Source: an uncultured Actinomycetota bacterium | GTDB taxonomy: Bacteria; Actinomycetota; Actinomycetes; JAFAQI01 | Direction of reading: 5' to 3' | Assembly (NCBI GenBank): GCA_963770565.1 | Contig: CAVYQE010000001.1 | Span: 704,146 to 768,145 of the forward strand | Length of the DNA stretch: 64,000 nt | Shown here: positions 3,863 through 47,301 of the stretch, in pieces | How positions within the stretch are numbered: the first letter of the stretch is position 1 | Layout: each line of letters starts with the position of its first letter | Position numbers and translations under genes: made by a program | The notes under the pieces: generated by a model | Told to the model about the DNA's origin: nothing | Database searches by the model: none | Seen by the model: the letters and a program-made list of their open reading frames with translations, nothing else

Positions 3863-4545
3863 CCGAAGGAACCGAGGAGACCGAGCCGACCGGGACCGAA
3901 TCGGATAGCTCGGGGATGGCGGCCGCGGTGGCGGCCGCCGGCTTGCGTGACCTGCGAGATCCGCGCGACATGCGGGCACTCGCGCACCCCACCCGACTGG
4001 CGTTGCTCGAGGCCCTGACGCTGCACGGCGCGCTCACCGCGACGCAGGCCGCGGAGTACGTCGGCGAGAGCCCGTCGTCCTGCTCGTTCCATCTGCGGTC
4101 GCTCGCGAAGCACCAATTCGTGGAGGAGACCGGAGCCGGGCGGGGCCGGGAGCGACCCTGGCGACTGGTGAGCGCCGGGACCGAGATGGGGTATCGGTTC
4201 GACGATCCGAAGACCCAGACTGCGGCGAATGCGCTGTGGCGGCTGTTCCTCGAGCGGCAGTTCGCGCGGCTGGTCGATGCGCAGGCTCGCCGGCCGTCGC
4301 TACCCGAGGAGTGGGCCCGCGAGCAGGCCAACCTCGAGAGCATCATGTGGCTCACGCTGGACGAGCTGCGCGAGGTCAATCGGGTGATCTTCGAGATTGC
4401 GTTGCGCTACTACCCGCGCATGACCGATCCCTCGCTCCGGCCGGAGGGCGCCGAGCCGTTGGAGCTGCTGTACTTCGCCTACAACGTGGACCAAGGTGCC
4501 GTGACAACCGCGCCGGATCCGGACCCGGAGCCCGAGTCGACCTGA
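3859..4545 (+). CDS. winged-helix (ArsR/SmtB-like) transcriptional regulator
   Basis: HTH region LAHPTRLALLEALTLHGALTATQAAEYVGESPSSCSFHLRSLAKHQFVEE is typical ArsR-family. The GTG start overlaps the MFS stop (GTGA), so the two genes are co-transcribed. Confidence 0.6.
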   Translation: MTEGTEETEPTGTESDSSGMAAAVAAAGLRDLRDPRDMRALAHPTRLALLEALTLHGALTATQAAEYVGESPSSCSFHLRSLAKHQFVEETGAGRGRERPWRLVSAGTEMGYRFDDPKTQTAANALWRLFLERQFARLVDAQARRPSLPEEWAREQANLESIMWLTLDELREVNRVIFEIALRYYPRMTDPSLRPEGAEPLELLYFAYNVDQGAVTTAPDPDPEPEST

Positions 4546-4593
4546 GCGAGCGGATCAAGAAAAATCGCTCGCCCACGCTGACACACTGGACGG

Positions 4594-6276
4594 ATGGGCC
4601 ACGTCGACGTGCAGCGGGTCAGCCTTGCGCTGCCCGACGGCCGGATGCTGCTCGACGAGGTCACGTTCCGGGTCGGTGACGGGCAGAAGGCCGCGCTGAT
4701 CGGCCCGAACGGCGCCGGCAAGACCACCCTGCTGAAGATCATCACCGGCGACCTGGCGGCGGACACCGGCGCGGTCACCGGATCGGGCGGGCTTGGCGTG
4801 ATGCGGCAGTTCGTGGGATCCGTGCGCGACGACTCGACCGTCCGGGACCTGCTGCTGTCGGTCGCGCCGCCACGAGTACGCGATGCCGCGGCCGCGGTCG
4901 ATGCGGCCGAGCTGGCGATGATGGAGTCCGACGACGAGCGCACCCAGCTTCGCTACGCGCACGCCCTTGCGGAGTGGTCCGACGCCGGCGGTTGGGACGC
5001 CGAGGTGTTGTGGGACACCTGCACGGTCGCCGCCATCGGCCTCCCGTACGACCGGGCCCGCTGGCGCGAGGTCCGCACGCTGTCCGGTGGCGAGCAGAAA
5101 CGGCTCGTGCTCGAGGCGTTGCTGCGTGGCCCCGACGAGGTGCTGCTGCTCGACGAGCCGGACAACTATCTCGACGTGCCGGGCAAGCGCTGGCTCGAGC
5201 AGTTGCTGGCTGACACTCCCAAGACCGTGCTCTACGTCTCGCACGACCGCGAGCTGCTCGCCCGAACGGCCAGCCGGATCGTCACCCTCGAGCTCGGTGC
5301 GGCCGGCAACACGGTCTGGATCCACGGCGGGGGATTTGCGTCGTACGCCGACGAACGCGCGGACCGTAACAGCCGGTTGGAGGAGCTGCGCCGCCGATGG
5401 GACGAGGAGCACGCCAAGCTCAAGGCGCTGGTCCTGCGGTTGCGGCTCAAGGCCACCTACAACGACGGGATGGCCGGCGCCTACCAGGCTGCCTGTACGA
5501 GGCTCGCGCGGTTCGAGCGCGAAGGCCCGCCGCATGCGGTGCCGCTTCGCCAGGACGTCAAGATGCGGCTGCGCGGTGGGCGGACCGCGAAGCGGGCGGT
5601 CGTGTGCGAGGACCTCGAGCTGACCGGGTTGATGCGTCCGTTCGACCTCGAGGTGTGGTTCGGCGAACGGGTTGCCGTGCTGGGCTCGAACGGCTCGGGC
5701 AAGTCGCACTTCCTGCGGCTGCTGGCTGCCGGTGGGTCGGATCCCGACGCCGAGCATCAGCCGGTGGCTGGCACGCCGATCATCAACGTCGCGCACACCG
5801 GAGTCGCGCGGCTCGGCGCTCGGGTGCGACCGGGCTGGTTCGCCCAGACGCATGAGCACCCCGAGTTGATCGGGCGCACGTTGCTCGACATCCTGTGGCG
5901 TGGGGACGAGCATCGCGACGGCATGGGCCGCGAGCAGGCGGCGCGGGTGCTCGACCGCTACGAGCTCGCGCACGCCGGCGAGCAGCCGTTCGAGACACTG
6001 TCCGGCGGGCAGCAGGCCAGGCTGCAGATCCTGTTGCTCGAGCTGTCGGGCGCGACACTGCTCCTGCTCGACGAGCCGACCGACAACCTCGACATCGTGT
6101 CGGCCGATGCGCTCGAAGCCGGCCTGGCGTCGTTCGAGGGGACCGTCGTCGCGGTCACGCACGATCGTTGGTTCGCCCGGTCGTTCGACCGCTTCGTGAT
6201 CTTCAGGGCCGACGGCACGGTCGACGAGTCGGACGAGCCGGTGTGGGACGAGGGCCGGGTGGAGCGGGTGCGCTGA
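4594..6276 (+). CDS. ABC-F family ATPase (two tandem ABC domains, no TMD)
   Basis: Two Walker A motifs (GPNGAGKTTLLK, GSNGSGKSHFLR), two ABC signatures (LSGGEQKR, LSGGQQAR) and Walker B LLLDEP twice. 560 aa with an inter-domain linker, which is the EttA/Uup/ARE-type architecture. Confidence 0.85.
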   Translation: MGHVDVQRVSLALPDGRMLLDEVTFRVGDGQKAALIGPNGAGKTTLLKIITGDLAADTGAVTGSGGLGVMRQFVGSVRDDSTVRDLLLSVAPPRVRDAAAAVDAAELAMMESDDERTQLRYAHALAEWSDAGGWDAEVLWDTCTVAAIGLPYDRARWREVRTLSGGEQKRLVLEALLRGPDEVLLLDEPDNYLDVPGKRWLEQLLADTPKTVLYVSHDRELLARTASRIVTLELGAAGNTVWIHGGGFASYADERADRNSRLEELRRRWDEEHAKLKALVLRLRLKATYNDGMAGAYQAACTRLARFEREGPPHAVPLRQDVKMRLRGGRTAKRAVVCEDLELTGLMRPFDLEVWFGERVAVLGSNGSGKSHFLRLLAAGGSDPDAEHQPVAGTPIINVAHTGVARLGARVRPGWFAQTHEHPELIGRTLLDILWRGDEHRDGMGREQAARVLDRYELAHAGEQPFETLSGGQQARLQILLLELSGATLLLLDEPTDNLDIVSADALEAGLASFEGTVVAVTHDRWFARSFDRFVIFRADGTVDESDEPVWDEGRVERVR

Positions 6277-6899
6277 TGCTGGTGCACCCGTGGGATGCCG
6301 CGCTCGACACCGATGAGTGGCGCAGTTTCGTTGTGTCCCAAGGGTTTGGGCAGCTGATCGCGCCTGGACGCGAACGCGAGGTGCCGATCGTCGTACCGAC
6401 CCAGTTCGTGCTGGAAGGCGAGGAGTTGCTGCTGCATCTCGCGCGGCCGAACCCGGTCTGGCATGCGATCGACGAGAACGCGACGGTGCTGATGTCGGTG
6501 GCCGGCGACTGGGCGTACGTGCCGTCGGCGTGGAAGGCGATCGGCGACGAGGATCCTTCGCGCGGGATCCCGACGACGTACTACGCCGCCGCCCAGCTGA
6601 CCTGCGACGCAACCGTCATCGATGACGCCGAGGGCAAGCTCGCCATCCTGCGCCGCCAGCTCGCCGAGCTCGAGCCGGAGCTGCCGACCGCGGACCCGGA
6701 GGTGCACACCCGGTCACTGCCCAACATCCGCGGGTTGCGCCTGGCGATCCGCGAGGTGAGGGCAAAGTTCAAGTACGGCGGCAACGTCGATCTCGAGCAC
6801 CGGCTGGCCGTCGCCGACCGGCTGGCAAACCGCGGTGGGCCCGGCGACGAGGCGGCCCGCACGCGGTTGCTCCGGCGCAGCGAGGTTCCCGGTGAGTGA
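6276..6899 (+). CDS. FMN-binding negative transcriptional regulator, PaiB family
   Basis: PaiB-like sequence (HPWDAALDTDEWRSFV...FGQLIAPG...VPIVVPTQFVL). The ATG overlaps the ABC-F stop (ATGA). The six-frame ORF 5895.. is an upstream in-frame extension with Arg-rich junk translation. Confidence 0.7.
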   Translation: MLVHPWDAALDTDEWRSFVVSQGFGQLIAPGREREVPIVVPTQFVLEGEELLLHLARPNPVWHAIDENATVLMSVAGDWAYVPSAWKAIGDEDPSRGIPTTYYAAAQLTCDATVIDDAEGKLAILRRQLAELEPELPTADPEVHTRSLPNIRGLRLAIREVRAKFKYGGNVDLEHRLAVADRLANRGGPGDEAARTRLLRRSEVPGE

Positions 6900-7584
6900 C
6901 GCACCGCTTGCCCGCTTCAAGGACCTTTGCCTGGACGCGATCGACCCCGGCCGGCTCGGGCCATGGTGGGCCGGCGTACTCGGGCTCGCCTGGGACCCGT
7001 GGGAGAGCGGTGCGGGCGGGTCACTGGTCGGCCGGACGCCCGGCCACACGATCTGGGTCGTGGCGGTGCCCGAGCGGAAGGCAGCGAAACAGCGGGTGCA
7101 TCTCGACCTCTACACCCGCTCGCTCGCCGAGCTCGAGGCGGTGGGTGCGACCGTCGTCGAGGCGCAGCACGAGGACTGGCGCTGGACGATCATGGCCGAT
7201 CCGGAAGGCGGGGAGTTCTGTGCGTTCCTCTGCGACGAGCTGCCCGAGGACCTGGTGCACGGGCTGGTGGTCGATTGCGCCGACCCGGCGCGGATCGCGC
7301 GCTGGTGGGCCGAGGTCTACGGTGCCGATCTGGTCGAGCACCCGAGCGGATATTCGACCCTCGAGCACGTGCCCGGAATGCCGATCTTGACCATGGACTT
7401 CGTGCCCGTGCCCGAACCCAAGGCGGTCAAGAACCGGATCCACTGGGACGTCGTCGCGCCCGATATCGAGGCTCTTGTCCGGTATGGCGCGACCGTGCTT
7501 CGCCGGCCGGACGACGAGATCCGCTGGACCGTGCTCGCCGATCCGGAGGGGAACGAGTTCTGCGCGTTCCCGCCGCCTGATTGA
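6892..7584 (+). CDS. VOC (glyoxalase/bleomycin-resistance fold) family protein with internal tandem duplication
   Basis: Two ~110-aa repeats each ending ...ADPEG(G/N)EFCAF, a glyoxalase-like beta-alpha-beta-beta-beta module. The GTG start overlaps the PaiB 3' end. Confidence 0.65.
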   Translation: MSDAPLARFKDLCLDAIDPGRLGPWWAGVLGLAWDPWESGAGGSLVGRTPGHTIWVVAVPERKAAKQRVHLDLYTRSLAELEAVGATVVEAQHEDWRWTIMADPEGGEFCAFLCDELPEDLVHGLVVDCADPARIARWWAEVYGADLVEHPSGYSTLEHVPGMPILTMDFVPVPEPKAVKNRIHWDVVAPDIEALVRYGATVLRRPDDEIRWTVLADPEGNEFCAFPPPD

Positions 7585-7712
7585 GCCGGTCGCGAGCGCT
7601 TTGACCGGCCGAGTGGGGCGCGGGTAGCCTCGAACGGTCGCGTGGGCACCAGCCGGCGCGGCCGGCGGCACCACGGCCGAATCCCGACTGCGAGACATGC
7701 GAAGGCTTCTCT

Positions 7713-8156
7713 GTGCGTACGTTTCAACCCAAGGCCGGCCAGATCACCCGCCAGTGGCTGGTGATCGACGCGACCGACGTCGTGCTCGGCCGGCTCGCCA
7801 GCCAGGCCGCCCGCCTGCTGCGCGGCAAGCACAAGCCGATCTTCGCCCCGCACGTCGACACCGGTGACTTCGTGATCATCGTCAACGCCGCCAAGGTCGC
7901 GCTCACCGGCAACAAGCGCGAGCAGAAGATCGCCTACCGCCACTCCGGCTATCCCGGCGGCCTGAGCGAGACGCCGTACTCCACGTTGCTCGACGAGCGT
8001 CCCGAGCACGTCGTCGAGAAGGCCGTGCGGGGCATGCTGCCGCACACGACGCTCGGCCGTCAGATGGCCGGCAAGCTCAAGGTGTACGCCGGCCCCGAAC
8101 ACCCGCACGAGGCCCAGCGGCCGGTGCCCTACGAGATTTCACAGGTGGCGCAGTAG
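7713..8156 (+). CDS. rplM: 50S ribosomal protein L13
   Basis: [53 protein letters not shown] is the canonical L13 N-terminus. GTG start. Confidence 0.9.
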
Positions 8157-10667: not shown

Positions 10668-12506
10668 ATGTGCGGGATCGTTGGCTATATCGGGACGAAA
10701 CCGGCACTCGACGTCATCATCGGCGGCCTGAGGCGACTCGAATACCGCGGCTACGACTCGGCCGGGATCGCGATCAACGACGGCGCCGGCCACCTCACCG
10801 TGGTGCGCCGGGCCGGCAAGTTGGCCAACCTCCAGCACGCCCTCGACGCCGAGGACCCGCAGTCGTTGCGCGGCAGTCTCGGGATCGGCCACACCCGGTG
10901 GGCCACCCACGGCGCACCCAACGATCGCAACGCCCACCCGCAGACCGACTGCAGTGGCGCGATCGCTGTGGTTCACAACGGCACGCTGGAGAACTTCACC
11001 GAACTGCGTGAGGGCCTCGAGCATCGCGGCCACGTGCTGACCAGCGACACCGACACCGAAGCGGTTGCCCACCTCCTCGAGGAGCGGTACGACGGCGACC
11101 TTGCGGCCGCGGTGCGCAGCGTCGCGGCCGACCTCGACGGCTCCTTCGTCCTGGTCGTCGTCCATCGCGACGAGCCGGAGCTCGTGGTCGGGGCGCGACG
11201 CAATCTGCCGTTGGTGGTCGGCCGGGGCGACGGCGAGAACTTCCTGGCCAGCGACGTCACCGCGTTCATCGCGCACACCCGCGACGCGCGCGCGATCGAC
11301 CAGGACCAGGTGGTCGAGCTGCGCCGCGACGGCGTTGTGGTCACGGACCTCGGCGGCGCTGCTGTCGACGGCGAGGAGTTTCACGTCGACTGGGACGTCG
11401 CCGCCGCTGAGAAGGCCGGCTACGACTACTTCATGCTCAAGGAGATCGACGAGCAACCCGAGGCGGTGCGCGAGACGCTCGGCGGCCGGCTGGACCCGAA
11501 CGGCCGGCTGATCCTCGACGAGCTCGCGATGAGCGACGAAGACATCCAGGGACTCAACCAGGTGATCGTGGTCGGTGCCGGGTCGGCGTACCACTCGGGT
11601 CTGGTCGCGAAGTATGCGATCGAGCGGTGGGCGCGGCTGCCGGTGCACGTCGAGATCTCGAGCGAGTTCCGCTATCGCGACCCCGTGCTCGACCGACACA
11701 CCCTGGTGGTGGCGATCAGTCAGAGCGGCGAAACAGCGGACACACTCGAAGCGGTGCGTCACGCCCGCCGGCAGCGGGCCTGGGTGCTCGCGGTGACCAA
11801 CACAGTCGGGTCGTCGATCGCCCGCGATAGCGACGCCGCGTTCTACACCCGAGGCGGTCCCGAGGTTGCGGTCGCGTCGACCAAGGCGGTCATGACGCAA
11901 CTGGCTGCCGTCTACCTCGTCGGTCTCTACCTTGCGCAGGTTCGCGGCTTCCGCGACACCGACGAGATCCGCTCGCACTTCCGCGACCTGGAGCAGATGC
12001 CTGCGCTGATCAGCGCAGTGCTCGCGCGGATGGATCCGGTCCGCAAGCTGGCGCGCGAGATCGCGTCCTCTGAACGGGTGTTGTTCATCGGCCGGCACGT
12101 CGGCTATCCGATGGCGCTCGAGGGCGCGTTGAAGCTCAAGGAGCTTGCGTACGTGTCCGCCGAAGGTTTCCCGGCCGGGGAGATCAAGCACGGTCCGATC
12201 GCGTTGATCGAGCGCGGGACGCCGGTCGTCGTGATCGCACCACGCCATGCGCTGACCCCGAAGCTGGTGACCAACGTGCAGGAGATCCGCGCCCGCGGGG
12301 CGCGCACGATCGTCATCGCGACCGACGGCGACGACAGCATGGTCAAGCATGCCGACGACCTAATCGTCATCCCGGACACCAAGTCGTTGCTGTCGCCGAT
12401 GTTGATGCTGGTGCCGATGCAGGTGTTGGCGGCGGAGTTTGCGATGTCGCGCGGCCTCGATGTCGATCAGCCGCGCAATCTCGCGAAGAGCGTCACCGTC
12501 GAGTGA
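10668..12506 (+). CDS. glmS: glutamine--fructose-6-phosphate aminotransferase (isomerising)
   Basis: MCGIVGYIG has the N-terminal catalytic Cys2 of class-II amidotransferases. Two SIS domains follow. The six-frame ORF 10356.. is an in-frame upstream extension (Arg-rich) and is rejected. Confidence 0.9.
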
Positions 12507-12859
12507 CGATCGTCGGCATCGGCGTTGACGTCGTCGATCTCGCGCGCTTCGCCACTGCCCTCGAACGCACGCCGCACCTGGGCGACCGGCTCTTCACCGA
12601 CCAGGAGCGCGCGGCTCCGCCGGAGACCGTCGCGGCGACGTTTGCCGCCAAGGAGGCGGTGGCCAAGGTGCTCGGTGCGCCCGGCGGCCTCGGCTGGCAC
12701 GACGTCGAGGTGCGTCGGAACGAGGTCGGCGAGCCGACACTGGTCGTGACCGGGACAGTCGCCGCCGCTGCCGATGCGGCCGGCATCACCCGCTGGCACG
12801 TGTCGCTGTCGCATGATGGCGGCGTCGCGATCGCGATGGTCGTCGCGGAAGGTGCGTGA
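12503..12859 (+). CDS. acpS: holo-[acyl-carrier-protein] synthase
   Basis: [14 protein letters not shown]...FT..E matches the AcpS N-terminus (4'-phosphopantetheinyl transferase). GTGA overlap with the glmS stop. Confidence 0.85.
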
Positions 12860-14331
12860 TGAGAGCGGCATATGACGCGGCGGCGGTTCGGGCCGCGGAG
12901 GCACCGCTGCTCGCCGCCCTGCCTGAGGGCACCGTGATGCAGCGGGCTGCAGCGGCGCTCGCCCGGCGCTGCGCCGCGCTGCTCGACGGCGTGTACGGGT
13001 CGCACGTCGTGGTGCTGGCCGGGCCGGGTGGCAACGGCGGCGACGCGCTGTACGCCGGCGCGCGCCTCGCGCAGCGAGGCGCGCGGGTTGACGCGCTGCT
13101 TCTCACCGAGTCCGTGCTGGCGCCCGCCCTTGCTGCGCTTCGGGACGCGCGTGGCCGAGCGCAGCTCGCCGGCACCGACACCGATGTCGCGCTGCTCGCC
13201 GGCGCCGATCTCGTCGTCGACGGGATGCTCGGCATTGGCGCCACCGGCGCGCTGCGCGCACCGATGGCGCGCCTCGCCGACGTGCTCGGCACCTGCCCCG
13301 CGACGGTCGTCGCGGTCGACGTACCGAGCGGTGTCGACGCCTCGACCGGCGAGATCGCCGGTACCGCCGTGCGCGCCGATGTCACGGTGACGTTCGGCGC
13401 GCTGAAGCTCGGGTTGGTCGTCTCGCCGGGCGCGGCCTGTGCCGGCCAGGTCGAGCTGATCGACATCGGCCTGGTCCTGCCGGACGCCGACGCAACGCTG
13501 CTCGATGCGGCCGATGTCGCGGCGATGTTGCCGCAGCCGCAGGCGGAGAGCGACAAGTATCGGCGCGGCGTGGTTGGCATTGCGGCCGGCAGCGACACCT
13601 ACACCGGCGCGGCGCAGCTCGCCGTCGGCGGCGCGCTCGGACTCGGCGTCGGCATGGTCCGCTTCGCCGGCGTCAGGCACCCGACCGAGCTGGTCCGGCA
13701 GCGCTGGCCTGAAGCCGTGGTGACGGAGGTCGCACCCGGCGATGGCGCGGCCGTGCTCGCGGCCGGCCAGGTCCAGGCCTGGGTGGTCGGGTCGGGTCTC
13801 GGCACTGACGCCGCCGCAGGTGCGGTGATCGAGGCGGTGCTCGGCGCCGAGGTCCCGGTGCTGATCGACGCCGACGCGATCACCTGGCTGGGCGAGCACC
13901 GCGACCTGTTGCGCGATCGCCGCGCGCCCACCCTGTTGACCCCGCACTCGGGCGAGTTCGCCCGGCTGATGGGCGCGGATCGCGACGACGTCGACGCGCA
14001 CCGGCTCGCACAGGTCCGCGCGGCGGCCGCCGACCTCGGAGTCACCGTGCTGCTCAAGGGGTCGACCACCGTGGTCGCCTCACCGACCGGCCAGGTACGG
14101 ATCAACAGCGCGTCGACGCCGTACCTCGCGACCGCGGGAAGCGGAGACGTCCTGTCCGGTGTGTGCGGCGGGTTGCTCGCGGCCGGCCTCGAGCCACTCG
14201 ACGCCGGCGCCGCAGGGGCGTTCCTCCACGGTCTGGCCGGATTGCTCGCAGCCGGCAGCCCGGCCGCGTCGATCACTGCGATGGACATCGTGGACCGGCT
14301 GCCCGATGCGGTCCGTACGGTGCGCGCTTAG
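12856..14331 (+). CDS. nnr: bifunctional NAD(P)H-hydrate repair enzyme Nnr (YjeF-N epimerase + ADP-dependent dehydratase)
   Basis: YjeF-N motif [25 protein letters not shown], and a C-terminal carbohydrate-kinase-like domain with GGALGLG...TPH.GE...G. GTGA overlap with acpS. Confidence 0.8.
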
Positions 14332-17901: not shown

Positions 17902-18344
17902 GCGTCGAGACACCCGAGGCGATGCGCGAGCTGGGGGAGCGCCTCGCCACGCACCTGCAGCCGGGGGACCTGGTTGTCCTCAGCGGCCGGCTCGGCGCGG
18001 GCAAGACCACCTTGGCGCAGGGAATCGGCACCGGCCTCGGGGTGTCGTCAGCGGTGTTGTCCCCGACCTTCGTGATCGCGCGGGTGCATCGGGACGGGCG
18101 GCTGCCGCTCGTGCACGTCGATGCCTACCGGTTGGCGACGATCGCCGAGGTCGACGACCTCGACCTCGATGCCTCGCTCGACGAGTCGGTGACCGTGGTC
18201 GAGTGGGGTGACGGGCTGGTCGAAGGACTGTCGGCGGATCGCCTGCTGGTCCGGATCGAACGGCCGGCGGAGGACTCCGATGAGACCCGGACCGTCGACC
18301 TGACCGGGGTCGGGCCGAGGTGGGCCGGGGTCAGCCTGCCGTGA
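17892..18344 (+). CDS. tsaE: tRNA threonylcarbamoyladenosine biosynthesis protein TsaE
   Basis: P-loop GRLGAGKTTLAQG(I)... with the conserved TsaE/YjeE fold. It overlaps the UDG 3' end by 10 nt. The tsaE-tsaB-rimI-tsaD cluster is conserved. Confidence 0.85.
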   Translation: MQLSVETPEAMRELGERLATHLQPGDLVVLSGRLGAGKTTLAQGIGTGLGVSSAVLSPTFVIARVHRDGRLPLVHVDAYRLATIAEVDDLDLDASLDESVTVVEWGDGLVEGLSADRLLVRIERPAEDSDETRTVDLTGVGPRWAGVSLP

Positions 18345-19632
18345 CCCGCTGGCGCGCGACTCGCGCCAGGTCGGGAAGGGTGTCGATCAGCGCCTGGGCC
18401 TGATCCTGGTCCCGGTAACGCGCGGTCGCGGTGAAGCGGTGGCCCGCGGTGTCGAGGAAGACGTTCGCGAGCCGGAGCCGGCGTACCCAAGGTCCTTGCG
18501 ACCACCGGATGCTCTGCACCTTCTCCAGCGGGACGATGACGGTGTCGGGCCGGAAGCGGCCGGTGCAGCAGGAGACATAGCGCTCGTCGTGGTGGATCCG
18601 GGCGTAGCGGCGGGCGAGCGGCGCCCGCCAGAACGATCGCGCCGGTGTGCCGGCCGGTGCTGGTAGCTCGGCGATCGCGCCGGGCAGCACCCGGCTCAGC
18701 AGCCACCGCGCCTCCTCGCGCGAGCCGAGCGGGAGCAAGGCCCGTGAGGTCATCCCGGACTGCCGGTCGCCGCGTTCGGCATTGCGGCGGCGAGCCACGT
18801 CGAACTCCAGCCGCACCCAGCCGAACGCCCGCCACGGCAGCGGCTCCACCCAGCGGACGGCCTGCACCCGGCCGTGCGGGATCGTCTCGGCCCGGGTCTG
18901 CAGAAGCCCGCTGCGCAACCGGATGCCGTCGGGTGCCTCCGCGATGTGGAACTCCCATTCGGCGGCGATCTGCCGCCAGGTGACGAGCAGGTCGCCGAAC
19001 ACGATCGGCACCGCCCCGGCGAGGATCCCGCCGGCGGCGTGCGGGAACGACACCGCCGCGACGATGACCCCGACGACCAGCAGTACGCCGAAGGCAAAGC
19101 GCAGGCTCAGCAGATTGGCGATCAGGATCTGGCTGCCGCGGACGGCGAGGATCTGCCGCTCCGGCGGCTCCGGGGTGTCGTCGGCGAGGCCGTGCGCCAA
19201 GGCGAGAAGCTGGGCCCGGACCGCGATCGCGCGCTCCTCGTTGAGGTAGGCGAGCCGGGCCCGGCCGGTGTCGTGCCCGGCGAGGACGAGCCGGAGCTCA
19301 GTGACGCCGAGGATTCGCGCGAGCAGCGGACGAACCAGGTCGATCCCCTGGATCCGGGTGACCGGCACCCGGACCTGCTGCCGCCGGATCAGGCCGGTGT
19401 CGATCTGCAGCTCGCCGCGGTGCACCCGCCATCTGGTCACCCGCCAGTACACGACCCCGGCGCCCGCCGCGAGCACGACCGCGACGAGATCGAAGACCGA
19501 CGGTCGGTGCTCGGCCGCGCCGTTCGCCGCGACGATGGTGAACAGCCCCGCCGCGGCTCCGCCGGCCCGCACGATGGGCGACAGCGGATGTAACCGCGAC
19601 CATGCTTCCGGAAGCGGGGCGTCCTCGCTCAC
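18331..19632 (-). CDS. membrane-anchored bacterial PH-domain protein (YdbT-like, bPH_2 repeats)
   Basis: N-terminal TM hairpin, then repeated bPH_2 modules (…VTRIQGIDLVRPLLARILGVTELRLV…). Paired with an upstream YdbS-like gene, the classical ydbS/ydbT arrangement. Confidence 0.7.
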   Translation of the reverse strand: MSEDAPLPEAWSRLHPLSPIVRAGGAAAGLFTIVAANGAAEHRPSVFDLVAVVLAAGAGVVYWRVTRWRVHRGELQIDTGLIRRQQVRVPVTRIQGIDLVRPLLARILGVTELRLVLAGHDTGRARLAYLNEERAIAVRAQLLALAHGLADDTPEPPERQILAVRGSQILIANLLSLRFAFGVLLVVGVIVAAVSFPHAAGGILAGAVPIVFGDLLVTWRQIAAEWEFHIAEAPDGIRLRSGLLQTRAETIPHGRVQAVRWVEPLPWRAFGWVRLEFDVARRRNAERGDRQSGMTSRALLPLGSREEARWLLSRVLPGAIAELPAPAGTPARSFWRAPLARRYARIHHDERYVSCCTGRFRPDTVIVPLEKVQSIRWSQGPWVRRLRLANVFLDTAGHRFTATARYRDQDQAQALIDTLPDLARVARQRVTAG

Positions 19633-20096
19633 AGCCCGGCGGCCTTGGCCTCGCCGAGGGCAGCGAGCCGATCACGCAGCCGGGCTGCCTCTGCGCTGTC
19701 GAGGCCGGGGATCCGGGCGTCGGTTGCCGACGCAGCGGTGTGCAGCTGCACCGTCGCCAGCCCGAACACCCGGTCGACCGGGCCGGCGGTGACGTCGACG
19801 AACTGCATCCGGCCGTACGGGACGACCGTCAGCCGGCGGATCATCACGCCACGACGCACGAGAAGGTCGTCGGCTCGTTCGGCGTACCCCCAGGCGCGAT
19901 AGCGCCGCCAGCTCAGTAGCGCGAAACCGGCCGAGCCAGCCAGCACGGCCGCTGCCGCGATCAGTCCGGCGGCCGCTCCGAACGGGATCCCGATCGCCAG
20001 GCCGAGCCCGATCAGCAGCAGCCCGCCGACCAGGCCGACCTGCGCCTGCCGAGCCCGCCACATCCGTGGCGAGGGGGACAGCCAGATCGGATCCAC
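19629..20096 (-). CDS. membrane-anchored bacterial PH-domain protein (YdbS-like, bPH_2)
   Basis: Two TM helices followed by a single bPH_2 domain (RLTVVPYGRMQFVDVTAGPVDRVFGLATVQLHTAS). Its stop overlaps the start of the downstream ydbT-like gene. Confidence 0.65.
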   Translation of the reverse strand: MDPIWLSPSPRMWRARQAQVGLVGGLLLIGLGLAIGIPFGAAAGLIAAAAVLAGSAGFALLSWRRYRAWGYAERADDLLVRRGVMIRRLTVVPYGRMQFVDVTAGPVDRVFGLATVQLHTAASATDARIPGLDSAEAARLRDRLAALGEAKAAGL

Positions 20097-40976: not shown

Positions 40977-40999
40977 CGCCGAGCGCTCGACCTGCGATT

Positions 41000-41533
41000 T
41001 CAAGGCTGATCGGACGGGCGGCGCGGCGGTGGAAGCTCGTGGCCGAGATGGGCGTTGGCAAGGGCGCTTGCCGCCTTGCGATCCGACTCGTAGATCCGGA
41101 TGCCATGGCCAGTCTGCTTGGCCTTGCCCGGGCCGTAGACGGCGAACGGGGTCGAGACATGGATGCTCCGGGAGCCACCTTTCCAACTGCGGCTGTTCAC
41201 GACCGCAGTGACGTCGGCGAACGCGAACGCTCCAGAGCCTCGGTGGCTGGTGAAGGCCAACTGAGTGGGCGAAATGATCACCTGGTACCGACGCGTCGAG
41301 GAGACTCGTAGGACCGCGACAAATCCCAGCGCACAACAGCCGCCGAGGATGATCGCGAGCGACCACGACCGTGTGGCCGCGTGGAGCAGGACGAGCTCGA
41401 CGAGGAGTAATGGTGGCAGCAGGACACAAGAGATTCGGGCGAGAAACACGTTGCTACGACTGAATGTTTCGCGCACCAGCCCGCATTGGGCGCAGGCGCC
41501 TCCGGTCTCGACCGCTGCATCTCTTTCGCTCAT
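41000..41533 (-). CDS. small membrane protein with N-terminal Cys-x2-Cys pair and C-terminal PH-like beta-rich domain (hypothetical)
   Basis: CAQCG near the N-terminus, then a TM segment (ISCVLLPPLLLVELVLLHAA…IILGGCCALGFVAVL), then a ~90-aa soluble domain. The start is taken at the ATG giving MSERD; the ORF is open further upstream to 41638. It lies 16 nt downstream of the RNB gene. Confidence 0.4.
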   Translation of the reverse strand: MSERDAAVETGGACAQCGLVRETFSRSNVFLARISCVLLPPLLLVELVLLHAATRSWSLAIILGGCCALGFVAVLRVSSTRRYQVIISPTQLAFTSHRGSGAFAFADVTAVVNSRSWKGGSRSIHVSTPFAVYGPGKAKQTGHGIRIYESDRKAASALANAHLGHELPPPRRPSDQP

Positions 41534-41654
41534 GTCGGCCACGACCCCAAGTATTCCTGGGCTTCGCCAACCGGCAAAGTGCATCAGCATTAGGCCGCCA
41601 AGCGAACTGTTCAGCGGCTCGTACCGCGGGCGGTACATAGCGCTGCACGGTCCA

Positions 41655-43055
41655 TCAAGCGGGAGTGAAGATGATCGTGCGGGCGGCGACGTCGGCCCTC
41701 GCCAGGCGGGCGCGGATCTCCTGACCTAGTGGCAGGTTCGGGCCGTCGATCCGGGTGCGCACCGGCGGGTCGCGGAGCTGGATCTCGCCGTGGTCGTCCT
41801 CGACCTCGACCACTACTCCCTCGAAGACCTCGCCGACCCGGTCCTGCAGCAGCACGGCCTCGGCCAGGTTGACCACGGCGTGATCGACCGCGTGCGCGTG
41901 CTGGTCGGCGGTCGCCATGAGGTGCGGCAGCTCGGGCAGCCCGGCCCGGGCCCATTCCGGCACCTCGCTGCCGGCGCAGATCGCCAGGCACACCTCGGAC
42001 ACATACCGGTCGGCCAGGCGGCGCAGCGGAGCGGTTGCATGCGCGTACGGCGCTGCGACCGCGGCATGGCGGATCTGCTGTGGCCGTTCGCCGTCGAAGG
42101 CGACGTACCCGGCGCCGCGGAGCAACGACCCGGCCAGCCGCAGTAGCGCCGCCTGCGGGGGCTTGGCCGGATTGAGGCCTCGGATGAAATCGGGGTACGA
42201 CACCCCCTTTCGCCAGGTCACGCCGAGGGCCGCGGCACTGCGATGGAACGACGCAACCTTGCGATGCCACGGACGCGGCATGGTTCGAAGCAGGCCGACC
42301 TTTGCCTCCACCATCAGCTTCGCCGCCGCCATCCCGGTGAGCAGCGAGAGTTGTGCGTTCCACCCCTCAGCGGGCACCGGCGTCCGGTACTCCAGCGTCC
42401 ATCCGTCGCCGTCCCGCGCCACGTATTGCTCGGGTGCGTTCAACGAGACGCCACCGCGCTCGCGCTCGCGACGTTCCCGCAGGTCGCCAACCACGGCGAG
42501 CAGTTCGGTGGACTCTGAGTGCGTGGTCAGCAACGAGTCATAGTCCAGCTGCGCCCGGCTGCGCACGACCGCGCGTCGTACCTCGATCGACGTCGGCTCC
42601 CCCTCTCCGTCGAGGTCCAGCTGCCACAGCACGGCCGGTCGATCGCCGTCCGGTAGCAGGCTGGCCGCGCCTTCGGACAGCGAGACCGGATACAGCGGCG
42701 CGCGAGCGTCGGGCAGGTAGTCGGTCTCGCCGCGAACGCGAGCCTCGGCGGCAAGCGGCCCGTCCGGCGCGACGAAAGCTCCGACGTCGGCGATCGCGTA
42801 GTGGAAGCAATACCCGGCTCCGCGCCGGGCCAGCGCGAAGGCCTGATCCAGATCGCGCGACCCCTTCGGGTCGAGAGTGACGAGCGGTACGTCGGTGGCG
42901 TCGACCCGGCCGTCGCGCGTCCACGAGTCGCGCGCAGCGTCAGCGGCGGCGAGCACGTCCGGCGCGAACTCGACCGGCACCTTCAGCTCGGTCCGCAGCG
43001 CGCGGAGCGGCTCGGCCAGGTCCGCGCCGCGGATGTAGGTACGACGACCCATCAC
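41655..43055 (-). CDS. RNB-domain exoribonuclease (RNase II/R superfamily, short form without S1/CSD domains)
   Basis: RNB motif I (…VTLDPKGSRDLDQAFAL…) with the catalytic Asp cluster, and motif …YAHATAPLRRLADRYV… (cf. YTHFTSPIRRY.D). 466 aa. Confidence 0.75.
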   Translation of the reverse strand: MMGRRTYIRGADLAEPLRALRTELKVPVEFAPDVLAAADAARDSWTRDGRVDATDVPLVTLDPKGSRDLDQAFALARRGAGYCFHYAIADVGAFVAPDGPLAAEARVRGETDYLPDARAPLYPVSLSEGAASLLPDGDRPAVLWQLDLDGEGEPTSIEVRRAVVRSRAQLDYDSLLTTHSESTELLAVVGDLRERRERERGGVSLNAPEQYVARDGDGWTLEYRTPVPAEGWNAQLSLLTGMAAAKLMVEAKVGLLRTMPRPWHRKVASFHRSAAALGVTWRKGVSYPDFIRGLNPAKPPQAALLRLAGSLLRGAGYVAFDGERPQQIRHAAVAAPYAHATAPLRRLADRYVSEVCLAICAGSEVPEWARAGLPELPHLMATADQHAHAVDHAVVNLAEAVLLQDRVGEVFEGVVVEVEDDHGEIQLRDPPVRTRIDGPNLPLGQEIRARLARADVAARTIIFTPA

Positions 43056-43115
43056 CCGGCCCCGCCACCCAGCATCGCGTCGTGCCCTTCAACTCGGAGC
43101 CGGACGCGATCGACG

Positions 43116-43571
43116 TTAGCGCCGCCGGTTCGGCGCGGCCAGCTCCTTGACCGCCGCGACCAGCTCATGTGAGTCGAACGGCTTGCGCAAGCAGGCATCG
43201 ACGCCCGCGGGCAGCGACATGACGCCGGCCCGCCGCGGCGACTGGGTGGTGAGCACAATCGTCCGAATCGCCGTAGTCGCCGGATTCGTCCGCAAGGCGT
43301 CAGCCACCTCCCAGCCGCTCATCAAGGGCATGTCGGAGTCGAGCACGGCGACGTCGGGATGAGTGGACGTCACCATGTCGAGCGCCGCGCCGCCGCCGTC
43401 GGCCTCGAAGACCTCCAGGCCCTCGCCGGACAGCGTCGTGGCGATCACGGCGCGGATCGCCGCATCGTCATCGACGACGAGCACCCGCACCCGCCGGATC
43501 GGCTGGCCGGCGGCTACCGGCCCGGCCAACCGATCCAGCAGCCGATGGCTGCGCGGCCCTCCGGAGCGCAC
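43116..43571 (-). CDS. stand-alone response-regulator receiver (REC) domain protein
   Basis: …VRVLVVDDDAAIRAVIATTLSGEGLEVFEADGG…DVAVLDSDMP…K: the acidic pocket DD, phospho-acceptor Asp and conserved Lys are present. No output domain. GTG start. Confidence 0.7.
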   Translation of the reverse strand: MRSGGPRSHRLLDRLAGPVAAGQPIRRVRVLVVDDDAAIRAVIATTLSGEGLEVFEADGGGAALDMVTSTHPDVAVLDSDMPLMSGWEVADALRTNPATTAIRTIVLTTQSPRRAGVMSLPAGVDACLRKPFDSHELVAAVKELAAPNRRR

Positions 43572-43652
43572 GATCGTCTCAATCCTCTCGGACCCGACCG
43601 CCTGGGGCCAGCGGCGTGCTCGCCAGTGTTCGCAACCCGCGTCACACCAACG

Positions 43653-46649
43653 TCACACCCGGCGAACCAGCCGGTCGAGGTCGAGGAGGGCGGCCGGCGG
43701 CGCCAGGTTGAGCTCCTCGAGGACGCTGCGAGCCCGATCGACGTACGACCGCGCTGCCCCCCGCCGACCTTGGCTGAGCAGGTGTTGCGCCACCTCGAGG
43801 TATCGCTCCTCTTCGTACGGCGCGATGTCCGTGGCCCGCACGAGGCAGCGGACTGCCTCGTCGACGTCGCCGACTCCGGCAGCGGAGTCGGCGCACAGGT
43901 CGAGCAGGGACAGCGCGTGCCGGCGAAGGCGTTCCCGCGGCATGATCGTCCACTGCTCGTAGGCGTCGTCCGGGAGCAGATCGCCGCGGTAGACCGCGAG
44001 CGCGCTTCGTGCCACCGACAACGCCTCGGGGGAGCGGGTCGCCGCCAACGCCTCGGCCCGACGGGCGTCGGTCTCGAACCGGTGGGCGTCGGTGTGCACG
44101 TGCGGCGCCAGCCGCAGCGCCCGCTCGTCGCGGACCACGAGCTCCGACGCCGACTCGCGCAACCGGTTCAGCACGGTTCGCAGCCGGTTTGCGCCGACGT
44201 CCGGATCGATCTCCGGCCATAGGTGCTCGATCACCTGCTCGGCGAGCATCGTGCCGCCGGCGCTCGCGATCAGCTTGAGCAGCTGCCGTCCTTGCCCGGC
44301 CGGAATGTCGATCACATGGCCGGCCTGGGTGATCTCGAACCGGCCGAGCATCGACACCACCACCGGGAACGCGCTCAGGTCGAGATCGATCGCGGTGAGC
44401 CCGCCGTTGCTCGCGCTCAGCGCCAACAGGTGCTCGGCGATCGTGCGTTCCTGGATCAGCGGCAGGTGCGGATGTCCGAGCCGCGCGGCCTGCGCAAACG
44501 CCTCGGCGGCAAGGACCGCCGCGTTCGAGTCGCCGCGCCGGGACGCAGCCATCGCCCGGAGCAGCGTGGCGTGCCAGAGCTCGCGGGGCTCGAACCACGG
44601 CTTGCCCTGCAGCGCCAGTAGATGCCGCTCCGCCTCCTCGGGATCTCCACTCCGGGCCGCCAACGCGGCCTCCGCCCGGGTGAGCGCGGGCTCGTCGGGC
44701 GGCATCTCCTTCGCGCGGGCCAGATAGTCATGCGCCAGCTCGGTGAGTCCGACCCGGTCGAGGAAGTTCGCAGCGTCAGAAAGGAACCAGCACCCCGACT
44801 GGTCGAACCAGTCCGTTGCATCCGCTTCGACCGCCTTGATCGCGGCCAGGGTCGCGTCGGGGTCGCCCTGCTGTGAGGCCCGCCGGGCGTAGTTCCACTG
44901 GACGTATGCCCGCAGTCGCAGATCGCGAGTCGTGTCCGCGATCGCCTGGGCCTCCACCTGGTTGTCCGCGGACTCCTCGTAGCGCCCGATCGTGTCGAGG
45001 ACCTCGGAACGGAAGGTGAGGATGGTGCCGCGCGTGTAACGGTTGTGGACCGCGAGGGTCAGCGCCTCGTCCATGCAGCGGATCGACTCGTCGTACGCGC
45101 CACGGGCCGCGTGCACCCACATCGCGAGCGGGATCATCAGGTGGGCCAGCCAGGTCCACTGCTCGTGCGCACGGTAGGTACGGGCGGCGAGCAGGATCCG
45201 CTCCTCGGCGTACCCGAGATGGACGTCGTCCTTCTGCATCGTCGTCGCCCACCCGAGCACCTCCAGGAACCGGGCCCGGGTGAGGTCCTCACCGAGCCCG
45301 GTCTGGGCGAGCAACTCACCGGCGACCGCGTCCGCCTCGTTGTGCCGCTCGGCCCAGAACAGGTCGCGGGCCTCCTCGGCCTTGAGTTCGCGGAAGAGCT
45401 TCGGCTCGCGGGTCGGGTCGATGAGGCGCCCGGCTCGCTCGCTCGTCGTCGCGCGCAACCGGGTGACCGCGCCGGGCTCGCAGGCCCGGACCAGGTGGAT
45501 GAGCAGGCGAGGGTGTTTGGCGACGATGTCGTCCGGCAGCCGGTCGGCCAGACCGGCGAACTCGGCCAGGTCCAGCGCCTCCGACTGTTGAGGGGTCAGG
45601 CCGGCAAGCAGCTCCGCGGCGGCCTCGCCCTGGTCGTGGCCGATCAACAGCTCGCAGCCGAGCGCGATCTCGCCACGTGCCACGTAGGCGTTGGCGCCGC
45701 GCCGCAATGTCTCGATCTCGACCGGAGCGCTGGCCATCAGCAGGTCGCGGACCGGGCCGATCAGCGCCGACCAGCCGCCGGGCGCGTTCGACAACGGCAG
45801 CCCGGCCGACCGGGCGGACACCAGCAGGTCGTCCAGGCCGGTCGCCGCGGCGACCAGATCGTCGTCCAGCAATGGCAGGTGGGAGGCCTGCCGAAGTGCG
45901 TTCTGCTCCTGGTCCGACAGGCGATTCAGGATGTCGTCGACCAGTGCCGAGAGCACCGCCGGTCCCGATCGTGCGTCGCGTCCCGACACGGTCAGCTCGG
46001 TGTCGTCGGTGTCCGAGCCGGTGGCGAAGAGCACGACCGCAGCAAGCCAACCGCCGGTCGACTTACCGAGCTCACCCAACTGGTCGGGCGACAGGCTCAG
46101 GCCGAAGCCGCTCGTACACAGCTGGGCCAGCTCGTCGTCGGTGAGCGCGAGCTCGGCGGTGCCGAGTACGACGGTCCGGTCGGCCTCCACCAAGGCATCC
46201 AGGCCGGCCGGCACGTGCCGCCCGATCAACAGCAGGCGCTGCGCGTCGCCGAGCCGGTCAGCGGTCGCGACGAGAAGATCGACGGCATCCGGACGGACGT
46301 TGTGGACCTCGTCCACCACCAGCAAAACCGGCTGGCCTTCGAGGGCCGCGAACATCGCGTCGAGCCGCCGGGCCGGTTCGTATCGCGCCGCCTGCTCCAT
46401 CCGGGCGGCGACATCGGACAGGCCGAGCATCGCGACCGCCGACCGCAGGCGGACCAGCAACAGGTCGGCCGACACGTCGAGCTGATCGAGCACCGCGGTG
46501 ATCGTCGGCACCCCGAGTACGTCGCTCAGCTCGGTCGAGAGCAGGGACTTGCCGTATCCGCCCCCACCCGCGATCACGCCGACCGACGCACCGCGCAAGG
46601 CGTCGGTGAGTCTGGGCCTCGGCACGTGGTACCGAGGAAGCTGGCTCAC
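43653..46649 (-). CDS. STAND-class regulator: N-terminal P-loop NTPase, central TPR-like repeats, C-terminal OmpR-type wHTH + BTAD (SARP-like) module
   Basis: Walker A GGGGYGKS and Walker B LLVVDEVH near the N-terminus. Long helical-repeat middle. C-terminal …LGRFEITQAGHVIDIPAGQGRQLLKLIASAGGTMLAEQVIEHLWPE…ANRLRTVLNRLR (trans_reg_C), followed by a BTAD-type helical domain (…LAVYRGDLLPD…). A GGAGG RBS precedes the GTG. Confidence 0.75.
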   Translation of the reverse strand: MSQLPRYHVPRPRLTDALRGASVGVIAGGGGYGKSLLSTELSDVLGVPTITAVLDQLDVSADLLLVRLRSAVAMLGLSDVAARMEQAARYEPARRLDAMFAALEGQPVLLVVDEVHNVRPDAVDLLVATADRLGDAQRLLLIGRHVPAGLDALVEADRTVVLGTAELALTDDELAQLCTSGFGLSLSPDQLGELGKSTGGWLAAVVLFATGSDTDDTELTVSGRDARSGPAVLSALVDDILNRLSDQEQNALRQASHLPLLDDDLVAAATGLDDLLVSARSAGLPLSNAPGGWSALIGPVRDLLMASAPVEIETLRRGANAYVARGEIALGCELLIGHDQGEAAAELLAGLTPQQSEALDLAEFAGLADRLPDDIVAKHPRLLIHLVRACEPGAVTRLRATTSERAGRLIDPTREPKLFRELKAEEARDLFWAERHNEADAVAGELLAQTGLGEDLTRARFLEVLGWATTMQKDDVHLGYAEERILLAARTYRAHEQWTWLAHLMIPLAMWVHAARGAYDESIRCMDEALTLAVHNRYTRGTILTFRSEVLDTIGRYEESADNQVEAQAIADTTRDLRLRAYVQWNYARRASQQGDPDATLAAIKAVEADATDWFDQSGCWFLSDAANFLDRVGLTELAHDYLARAKEMPPDEPALTRAEAALAARSGDPEEAERHLLALQGKPWFEPRELWHATLLRAMAASRRGDSNAAVLAAEAFAQAARLGHPHLPLIQERTIAEHLLALSASNGGLTAIDLDLSAFPVVVSMLGRFEITQAGHVIDIPAGQGRQLLKLIASAGGTMLAEQVIEHLWPEIDPDVGANRLRTVLNRLRESASELVVRDERALRLAPHVHTDAHRFETDARRAEALAATRSPEALSVARSALAVYRGDLLPDDAYEQWTIMPRERLRRHALSLLDLCADSAAGVGDVDEAVRCLVRATDIAPYEEERYLEVAQHLLSQGRRGAARSYVDRARSVLEELNLAPPAALLDLDRLVRRV

Positions 46650-46773
46650 TACCCCTCCAACGCCGTCAGTGAACGCCCCGTCACATCATCGCGAATCGAC
46701 GAAGCCGGTGTCAGGCCGGCTGGCGAACCGAGCAGAGCCTCGACCCGGGGCACTAGTCCGGCGGGGTGCGACG

Positions 46774-47301
46774 ATGGAGGCCGGTCCGACTCGAGGAGTG
46801 CTGGCTGTGTCCGTCTACGAGATCCCTCTCACCACGATCGACGGCAAGCCGGCGACGCTGGCCGAGCACGCCGGCGAGGTCCTGCTCGCGGTCAATGTGG
46901 CGTCGAAATGCGGCTTCACCCCGCAGTACGCCGCGTTGCAGCAGCTGCACGAGACCTACGCGGATCGTGGCTTCTCGGTGCTCGGCTTTCCCTGCAACCA
47001 GTTCCTGTTCCAGGAGAGCGGCTCGGAGTCGCAGATCGCGCAGTTCTGCAGCGTCACGTACGGGGTGTCGTTCCCGATGTTCGCCAAGGTCAAGGTTCGC
47101 GGCCGCGGCCAGCATCCGCTGTTCGGTGAGTTGACCAAGGCGGCCGACCCGAGTGGATCGGCCGGCGGTGTCAAGTGGAACTTCGAGAAGTTCCTGATCA
47201 ACCGGCAGGGCGAGGTCGTCGGCCGGTTCCGGTCGAAGGTGACGCCGGACGACCCGGCCGTGGTCAGCGCGATCGAAGCCGCGCTGGACGCGCCCGCTTA
47301 G
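46774..47301 (+). CDS. glutathione peroxidase / thiol peroxidase (Gpx/BtuE family)
   Basis: …LLAVNVASKCGFTPQY…LGFPCNQF…WNFEKFL…: the catalytic Cys (as in VASKCG) and the Gpx signature motifs. Confidence 0.85.
   Translation: MEAGPTRGVLAVSVYEIPLTTIDGKPATLAEHAGEVLLAVNVASKCGFTPQYAALQQLHETYADRGFSVLGFPCNQFLFQESGSESQIAQFCSVTYGVSFPMFAKVKVRGRGQHPLFGELTKAADPSGSAGGVKWNFEKFLINRQGEVVGRFRSKVTPDDPAVVSAIEAALDAPA

Follow-up and report, generated by a model that had tools for sequence, protein, structure and literature searches.

A predicted operator and promoter beside a MalT-type ATPase with a C-terminal SARP module in an uncultured actinomycete

A probable two-part module and its distribution

This study deals with a stretch of 64,000 nucleotides from an uncultured Actinomycetota bacterium, here called the window, and with four co-directional open reading frames (ORFs) on its minus strand, which code for a STAND-type regulator of 998 aa, a stand-alone receiver (REC), a short exoribonuclease (RNB) and a small membrane protein (ORF4). 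With a probability that we put at roughly 70%, the locus consists of a regulatory module with two parts that lies next to a housekeeping RNase, and is not a four-gene system. A sequence-only reading of the window had described the four genes as a cluster with 16-81-nt spacers and had regarded the combination as an operon type not known before. The ORFs are indeed there, with spacers of 81, 60 and 16 nt as annotated. In place of a new type of operon, there is the module, which has a housekeeping RNase and a strain-specific gene as its neighbors in a single narrow lineage.

Regulator loci were fetched from species-representative genomes (80 in number) and searched with all four proteins; the tblastn searches with the four proteins covered 88, later 93, fetched loci, and the neighboring genes were clustered. 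Coordinates are those of the 64-kb window unless a locus is named, loci are labeled L001-L093 and homologous proteins P0001 onward. These searches led to the rejection of a conserved four-gene operon. RNB was found near the regulator only in a narrow, Frankiaceae-like clade with a backbone running from gpx (glutathione peroxidase) to guaA (the window, L014/L092, L001, L091, L009 and L090) and in none of the ~75 other, more distant, regulator loci, and ORF4 was detected in none of the fetched regulator loci. In L001 (RNB 77% identical) the order is gpx, regulator, a 137-aa secreted protein, REC, RNB and guaA. Two loci, L002 (RNB 72% identical) and L093 (73%), have the gpx to guaA backbone and RNB without the regulator and REC, and in L004 (63%) RNB lies in a different context. 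A metagenome scan with RNB returned just two loci and has little statistical power.

The commonest neighbors of the regulator family are small secreted proteins of two types, XA and XB, found in 12 loci. XA (137-162 aa) and XB (186-193 aa) have signal peptides and the common motif G-K-[FY]-A-G-A-x-G, and their genes lie directly past the predicted operator described below (L001 9015-9428; L009 11094-11513; L012 11128-11616 and 12295-12831; L010 11199-11762; L013 5842-6402; L045 11085-11666; L022, L027, L055, L058 and L061 near 7250-7830 on the minus strand). Pfam gave no match for the one XB and two XA members submitted, and the window has neither XA nor XB. Two loci (L013 7929-12568 and L045 13492-17769) contain a signaling protein of 1417-1425 aa located 2.2-2.5 kb downstream of the regulator, which in L013 has the domains GAF-HisKA-HATPase-REC-PAS-SpoIIE-HATPase_c_2 and precedes a STAS protein. 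In L090, a long-read metagenome contig, both the regulator (3949-6954) and guaA (11704-13282) are split over several frames. The regulator of L090 was considered as a decaying pseudogene and this was rejected, as guaA is frameshifted on the same contig and assembly errors are the most likely explanation.

Architecture of the regulator

The sequence-only reading had assigned to the regulator the order P-loop NTPase, tetratricopeptide repeats (TPR), and winged helix-turn-helix (wHTH) with BTAD, and this order is borne out by domain profiles, by structure prediction and by fold matches. Pfam places AAA_22/AAA_16 at residues 17-143, a weak TPR match at ~512-571 and BTAD (47-51 bits) at 853-993, and the NCBIfam MalT model matches residues 8-274. 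When a profile of 40 homologues was compared with the structure of the nucleotide-binding oligomerization domain (NOD) of Escherichia coli MalT (8bob), the match extended over residues 7-386 of the regulator (E 2e-31); all 40 homologues retain the Walker A motif GGGGYGKS and D113 without change (G31, G33, K34, D113). The OmpR-type wHTH (Trans_reg_C) stays below the Pfam threshold with 13.9 bits. The AlphaFold2 (AF2) model of residues 745-998 has a mean confidence (pLDDT) of 95, and its best PDB fold matches in Foldseek are the SARP modules of AfsR (8k60, 8hvr) and EmbR (2ff4), with a TM-score of 0.71 over 244-252 columns. The protein can accordingly be divided into the NOD (~residues 7-386; 45492-46631), a TPR-like sensor (~387-745) and the SARP module of wHTH and BTAD (~757-998; 43656-44381). 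Neither Pfam nor NCBIfam gave an NB-ARC match in the regulator, and there was no GerE match, the C-terminus being the SARP module.

The same domain order is kept in ~60 full-length homologues, all ~1000 aa long and 30-97% identical, which bear the database label 'BTAD domain-containing putative transcriptional regulator'. Nearly all of them come from uncultured Actinomycetota (Frankiaceae, Trebonia, Streptosporangiaceae, Acidimicrobiales, Solirubrobacterales), Dormibacterota and Chloroflexota. Because the NOD matches MalT and an NB-ARC match is absent, the name of an inverted AfsR describes the regulator less well than that of a MalT/LAL-type protein with a SARP module in place of the LuxR output. 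Its modules are those of a SARP-LAL regulator, arranged the other way round, and from each described class it departs in one defining feature: the N-terminal SARP module, the LuxR output or the NB-ARC NOD. SARP reviews (PMC10972967) and a 2026 preprint describe N-terminal SARP modules only (small, medium, large and SARP-LAL). No description of a C-terminal SARP module was found in the literature, the coverage of which was incomplete and leaves the absence unproven.

The predicted SARP box and its promoter

On the 3' side of the regulator stop codon the window reads GGGTGTGACGTTGGTGTGACGCGGGTTGCGAACACT. Immediately past the stop there is a tandem repeat with an 11-nt period, GTGTGACG(C)-NN-GTGTGACGC, which is here named the SARP box. 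Its form in the window is GTGTGACGt-tg-GTGTGACGC, in which a 9-nt core is repeated and the first copy overlaps the TGA stop of the regulator. The box (43658-43639) is followed, after 8 nt, by the hexamer AACACT (43630-43625), and the predicted transcription start lies near 43618. [quoted passage not shown] The repeat and -10 spacing in the window agrees with this rule, and the geometry is the classic one of SARP-activated promoters.

The box was searched for in 1.31 Mb of loci with up to four mismatches allowed, and the zone within 400 nt of a regulator gene, which makes up ~5% of the sequence, was considered near. There are 30 near sites, distributed over 29 loci, so that at least 29 of the 81 family loci have the box beside the regulator gene, and of the 26 locus sites with at most two mismatches 21 fall in the near zone; in L012 one of the five remaining stands before the gene of the second XA. 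Perfect copies occur in L090 and L091, and the 64-kb window has a single site at up to four mismatches. No box was found in the STAND-less loci L002, L093 and L004. Boxes downstream of the regulator share its strand and upstream ones lie on the other strand, so that all 30 nearby sites face the neighboring gene and none the regulator. In L014, L001, L009, L012, L029, L045, L013, L010, L011, L073, L090, L091 and L092, with regulators from 97% down to 47% identical, the box lies 3' of the regulator stop, and in ~14 further loci it is located divergently upstream. The gene that follows it varies (REC, XA, XB or an uncharacterized protein), also among loci whose regulators are just 47-66% identical.

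A later scan of the same loci and the window concerned the promoter hexamer. NANNNT stands exactly 8 nt past the box in 25 of the 26 sites with at most two mismatches, and at offsets 3-7 in none. In L014/L092 and L090 the receiver start codon is 6-7 nt past this hexamer, as expected for a leaderless mRNA. Box, conservation, orientation and promoter geometry are in this way observed across the loci.

It could be argued that the adjacency of the genes is pure coincidence and that the repeat is the site of some other factor or a remnant of module mobility, and several points weigh against the operator reading. Both the promoter call and the operator role of the repeat come from comparative sequence only. 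The 81 loci are related and the counts are not independent, although at least ~10 clearly different neighborhoods still carry the box. Only about one third of the family loci match the box at up to four mismatches, the others having variants (GTGGGACGC, GTTGGACGC) or no box that could be found. In the clade of the window the box overlaps the stop codon, and coding constraint could account for some of its conservation there. In other loci, however, the distance from stop to box is 12-157 nt, or the box sits upstream in the divergent spacer, and it is therefore independent of the coding sequence. It also accompanies the regulator and is missing where there is no regulator, and the tandem direct form, the 11-nt period and a -10 at +8 are exactly what a SARP dimer needs. 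Coincidence of this kind is thus considered unlikely.

Variants of the box keep the 11-nt phasing. GTTGGACGC occurs in Solirubrobacterales loci, and GTGGGACGC in the Chloroflexota locus L049 and the Thermoleophilia locus L075 (variant positions: L042 12076 and 16510; L053 13371; L049 7917 and 12040; L075 14380 and 17223). Such variants suggest that operator and recognition helix co-evolve.

From this evidence we infer that the regulator binds the box and activates the promoter. In the operator reading, by analogy to MalT and AfsR, a ligand or partner of the repeat domain together with ATP would lead to oligomerization and bring two SARP modules side by side on the DNA. The operator would be the tandem 9-of-11-nt direct repeat, overlapping the -35 region of the AACACT promoter, and the paired C-terminal SARP modules on the repeats would recruit RNA polymerase. 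The activated transcript would begin with the receiver gene and probably run on into RNB. Across the family the same box would drive whichever gene comes next, mostly that of a small secreted XA or XB and sometimes that of a receiver, and the conserved unit would therefore consist of regulator, box and adjacent target, which adjoins RNB in one narrow clade only. The earlier suggestion of a transcriptional circuit with a regulon that might include the RNase thus pointed in the right direction, a predicted SARP-type operator and promoter being located between the regulator and the receiver-RNB pair.

The receiver and the RNB exoribonuclease

The 151-aa protein is a receiver only, as had been proposed: Response_reg covers residues 30-142 (81 bits) and no output domain follows. 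D34, D35, D78, T108 and K130 are in place as read from the sequence, and GAGAGGA, resembling a Shine-Dalgarno sequence, is found 11 nt 5' of the GTG start. The accompanying claim that no kinase is nearby held insofar as no histidine kinase was detected in the 64-kb window by tblastn with two kinase cores or among the Pfam-scanned ORFs, which is a weak test. Likely REC orthologues lie directly 3' of the regulator in L014/L092, L001, L009, L090, L091, L029 and L012, with the gene of the 137-aa secreted protein placed between the two in L001. The REC proteins of L029 and L012 are 44-48% identical and follow the regulator in loci where RNB is absent. The receiver appears to be a somewhat deeper companion of the regulator than RNB.

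RNB has the RNB domain (PF00773, 134 bits) and, at residues 409-466, RNase_II_C_S1 (PF18614, 66 bits). It had been described as a short form lacking both the cold-shock domains (CSD) and S1; the N-terminal CSDs are indeed missing, Pfam finding none and just 49 residues preceding the RNB domain, and the C-terminal S1 domain is present. At least 8000 homologues share its length and architecture. Its nearest solved relatives are RNase R (5xgu, the best match with E 1e-27) and a 469-aa RNase II-family protein of Deinococcus. Motif I reads DPKGSRDLDQA (residues 61-72), where Gln replaces the fourth Asp, and DLDQA instead of D-x-D-D-A was found in 120 of the 120 closest homologues (P0001-P0120). Exoribonucleases of this short RNB and S1 form are ordinary in this bacterial group, and the gene lies between gpx and guaA, where it is usually found.

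The spacer between REC and RNB is 60 nt in the window and ~9-63 nt across the clade, and unusual folds or terminators were not detected in it. Because of the 60-nt spacer without a detectable terminator, read-through of the transcript from the box promoter into RNB is probable. There is a promoter-like site before RNB in L002, and TAGGGT is retained before RNB in L009; RNB may keep its own transcription start.

The closeness of these genes could also mean that regulator, REC and RNB, or all four genes, form a dedicated system, in which a signal perceived by the STAND protein induces the receiver and the exoribonuclease for stress-triggered RNA decay. The genes are co-directional and tightly spaced, with REC and RNB ~9-63 nt apart in all six clade loci, a terminator was not found, and the SARP-box promoter lies upstream of REC-RNB. 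The linkage is, however, limited to one narrow clade and a single chromosomal backbone: L002 and L093 retain RNB without regulator or REC, ~75 other regulator loci have no RNB, and in L029 and L012 the regulator is followed by REC with RNB absent. To this come the promoter-like site of L002, the TAGGGT of L009 and the lack of ORF4 in a strain with a 97%-identical regulator. A dedicated system is in our opinion improbable. Still, the short REC-RNB spacers throughout the clade fit a real operon, and this has to be set against the view of RNB as a bystander; RNB may be a genuine, if recent, member of the regulon.

For RNB and ORF4 the sequence-only reading had itself allowed for coincidence, and this largely describes what was found: the RNB family of at least 8000 members has varying neighbors, L002 and L093 have neither regulator nor receiver, and ORF4 is absent from the strain with the 97%-identical regulator.

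A further-reaching interpretation, offered here as tentative, is that the regulators form an undescribed SARP class of MalT-type NOD, sensor and C-terminal SARP module, with an operator of its own, in uncultured Actinomycetota, Chloroflexota and Dormibacterota, and that its promoter captured a receiver and an RNase II-family exoribonuclease in the Frankiaceae-like clade. If this is true, 3'-5' RNA decay would there be under the control of an ATP-dependent ligand sensor.

ORF4 and the spacer between RNB and guaA

An exhaustive HMMER search of 1.8 billion representatives gave a sole real homologue of ORF4, P0201, which shares 84% identity, has 177 aa and begins at the residue corresponding to M36. 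The second match, P0202, is a repetitive 818-aa protein and was treated as spurious. Because the homologue starts at the equivalent of M36, ORF4 probably has 177 aa and begins 121 nt, and not 16 nt, past RNB. P0201 is encoded on a 1.3-kb contig (L089), where it lies, like ORF4 in the window, between the RNB 3' end and guaA. Its dN/dS against ORF4 is 0.34, the RNB C-terminus of that contig having 0.10 and guaA 0, and ORF4 is therefore regarded as a real but fast-evolving gene. ORF4 had also been considered as a spurious ORF (low GC3 and no matches in relatives), which was rejected given the 84%-identical syntenic homologue and the dN/dS. Its G+C content at third codon positions (GC3) of 0.74 is still that of the best frame there, with a weaker coding signal than in the neighbors.

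This small membrane protein has a CxxC pair, as the sequence-only reading had stated, and two hydrophobic helices; it is the 212-aa length of the ORF and the 16-nt spacer that probably do not hold. As to the PH-like soluble domain that had also been proposed, Pfam gave no match for ORF4 even at E 10, and its AF2 model, from a 2-sequence alignment, has a pLDDT of 41. A 446-aa protein with two clear bPH_2 domains is encoded elsewhere in the window (18331-19671, minus strand); ORF4 has no such match.

ORF4 is absent from L001, L009, L002 and L014, although the L014 regulator is 97% identical. The spacer between RNB and guaA is a variable spot (window 40977-41595, L014 6227-8638), occupied by ORF4 in the window and L089, by 2.4 kb of unrelated DNA in L014/L092, including a fragment weakly resembling an integrase SAM-like N-terminal domain, and by a Methyltransf_4 gene in L002; in L001 it is just 7 nt long. 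The fold of the 121-nt stretch between RNB and ORF4 surpasses that of shuffled sequence (z = -2.3), and the transcript could terminate there. ORF4 stands outside the conserved module and is a young and strain-specific membrane protein, located in a spacer that varies.

Gene layout and genomic surroundings

The coordinates of the features are collected in Table 1. The window has a G+C content of ~70% with no local composition break. GC3 values of 0.85-0.89 for regulator, REC and RNB give strong coding support, the neighbors overall having 0.85-0.92. Intrinsic terminators were not detected between the genes by a scan which often misses actinobacterial terminators, so that the result is weak. The candidate promoter of the regulator gene was obtained from a consensus scan, and its stretch is nearly identical in L014 and partly retained in L001. 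In the long gpx ORF (window 46498-46790) the first ~88 codons are an antisense reading of the regulator 5' end. The true gpx start lies near 46790, which leaves a divergent spacer of ~140 bp between gpx and the regulator.

Table 1. Predicted genes and regulatory elements of the locus (window coordinates)
Feature	Coordinates	Strand	Remarks
MalT-type STAND regulator with C-terminal SARP module	43653..46649	-	998 aa
Predicted SARP box	43639..43658	-	tandem direct repeat, 11-nt period
-10-like hexamer AACACT	43625..43630	-	8 nt past box
Stand-alone receiver (REC)	43116..43571	-	151 aa; first gene past the predicted SARP-dependent promoter
Short RNase II/R-family exoribonuclease (RNB)	41655..43055	-	466 aa
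ORF4, small membrane protein	41000..41638 as 212-aa ORF; probably 41000..41533 (177 aa)	-	
Sigma-70-like promoter candidate CTGACA-18-GATGAT	46685..46714	-	regulator gene; divergent spacer toward gpx; consensus scan only

On the guaA side there are the core genes rplQ/truA, glmM, glmS, alr, groEL, guaB, a guaB paralogue, XdhC-like genes and those of a GMC oxidoreductase and a sulfotransferase, and guaA itself. The gpx side comprises gpx, an ABC-2 exporter, UPF0182, a penicillin-amidase-like protein, YceI, MarR and PcrA/UvrD.

Such surroundings bear on the proposal that the cluster is a signal-activated effector system, Avs-like or of another STAND anti-phage kind, in which the RNase and the membrane protein serve as effectors. 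The superficial combination of STAND ATPase, nuclease and membrane protein is its support within the window. Elsewhere, one distant regulator homologue (L006/L011, 1384-4248 and 14351-17113; 51% identical) lies among TIR-AAA-TPR and CHAT-TPR genes and has the look of a conflict system; nothing of the kind is present in the window. PADLOC had no matches for the regulator, RNB or ORF4, and the 14.8-bit SduA match of the receiver is noise. Moreover, the effector domain of the regulator is a SARP DNA-binding module, RNB belongs to a ubiquitous chromosomal family, and the surroundings are those of core metabolism and translation (groEL, guaB, guaA, gpx, UPF0182, pcrA) without a composition anomaly, resembling no phage-defense island. 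A defense function for this locus, as put forward by the sequence-only reading, is very improbable.

Comparison with known regulators

The nearest described relatives in terms of modules are the SARP-LAL regulators of Streptomyces (PimR, FilR and SanG), which likewise combine a SARP module (OmpR-type wHTH and BTAD) with a LAL/MalT-type ATPase region and bind tandem direct repeats ~11 bp apart at the target promoter (PMC10972967; PMC5930380). In SARP-LAL proteins, however, the SARP module is N-terminal and the ATPase C-terminal, while the family of the window regulator has the ATPase first and the SARP module last, separated by a long TPR-like sensor. The known SARP-LAL members control antibiotic clusters, whereas the genes of the present family adjoin those of small secreted proteins or receivers and are known from uncultured lineages only.

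AfsR of Streptomyces coelicolor, a large SARP, is alike in the SARP fold (TM 0.71), and in both proteins a STAND NOD with TPR would modulate the SARP module. The order in AfsR is SARP, NB-ARC-clade NOD and TPR, whereas the window regulator has a MalT-clade NOD and the SARP module last. The AfsR operator is a pair of direct repeats that covers the -35 region and is phased with a weak -10, similarly to the layout of the window box, and its target afsS is a small adjacent gene. This likeness is one of layout; the box sequence GTGTGACGC was derived from the family loci and not from the afs box.

MalT, the activator of the E. coli maltose regulon, has a NOD homologous to that of the window regulator over 380 residues, and its layout of NOD, helical-repeat sensor and C-terminal DNA-binding output is also alike. 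The outputs differ, being a LuxR/GerE HTH in MalT and a SARP module (wHTH and BTAD) in the window regulator. By analogy, the mechanism of MalT, multimerization driven by ATP and inducer on repeated sites, would be expected for the window regulator as well.

As for the exoribonuclease, the RNase II-family protein of Deinococcus radiodurans (PDB 2R7D) has 469 aa compared with 466 aa in RNB, and both carry RNB and the PF18614 S1 domain. Their similarity is moderate (E 6e-16 over residues 47-221), and the actinobacterial family has DLDQA where D-x-D-D-A is usual.

Significance

SARPs have been studied mostly as switches of antibiotic production, and in every described class the DNA-binding module is N-terminal. 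The family described here has, as judged from sequence evidence, the SARP module at the rear of a MalT-like ATPase. A false lead is removed at the same time, as neither the RNase nor the membrane protein belongs to a new defense or RNA-decay system. For dozens of uncultured bacteria of three phyla, the sequence is enough to predict operator and promoter, which provides a testable regulator-operator pair, and small secreted proteins are hinted at as the usual targets of this regulator family.

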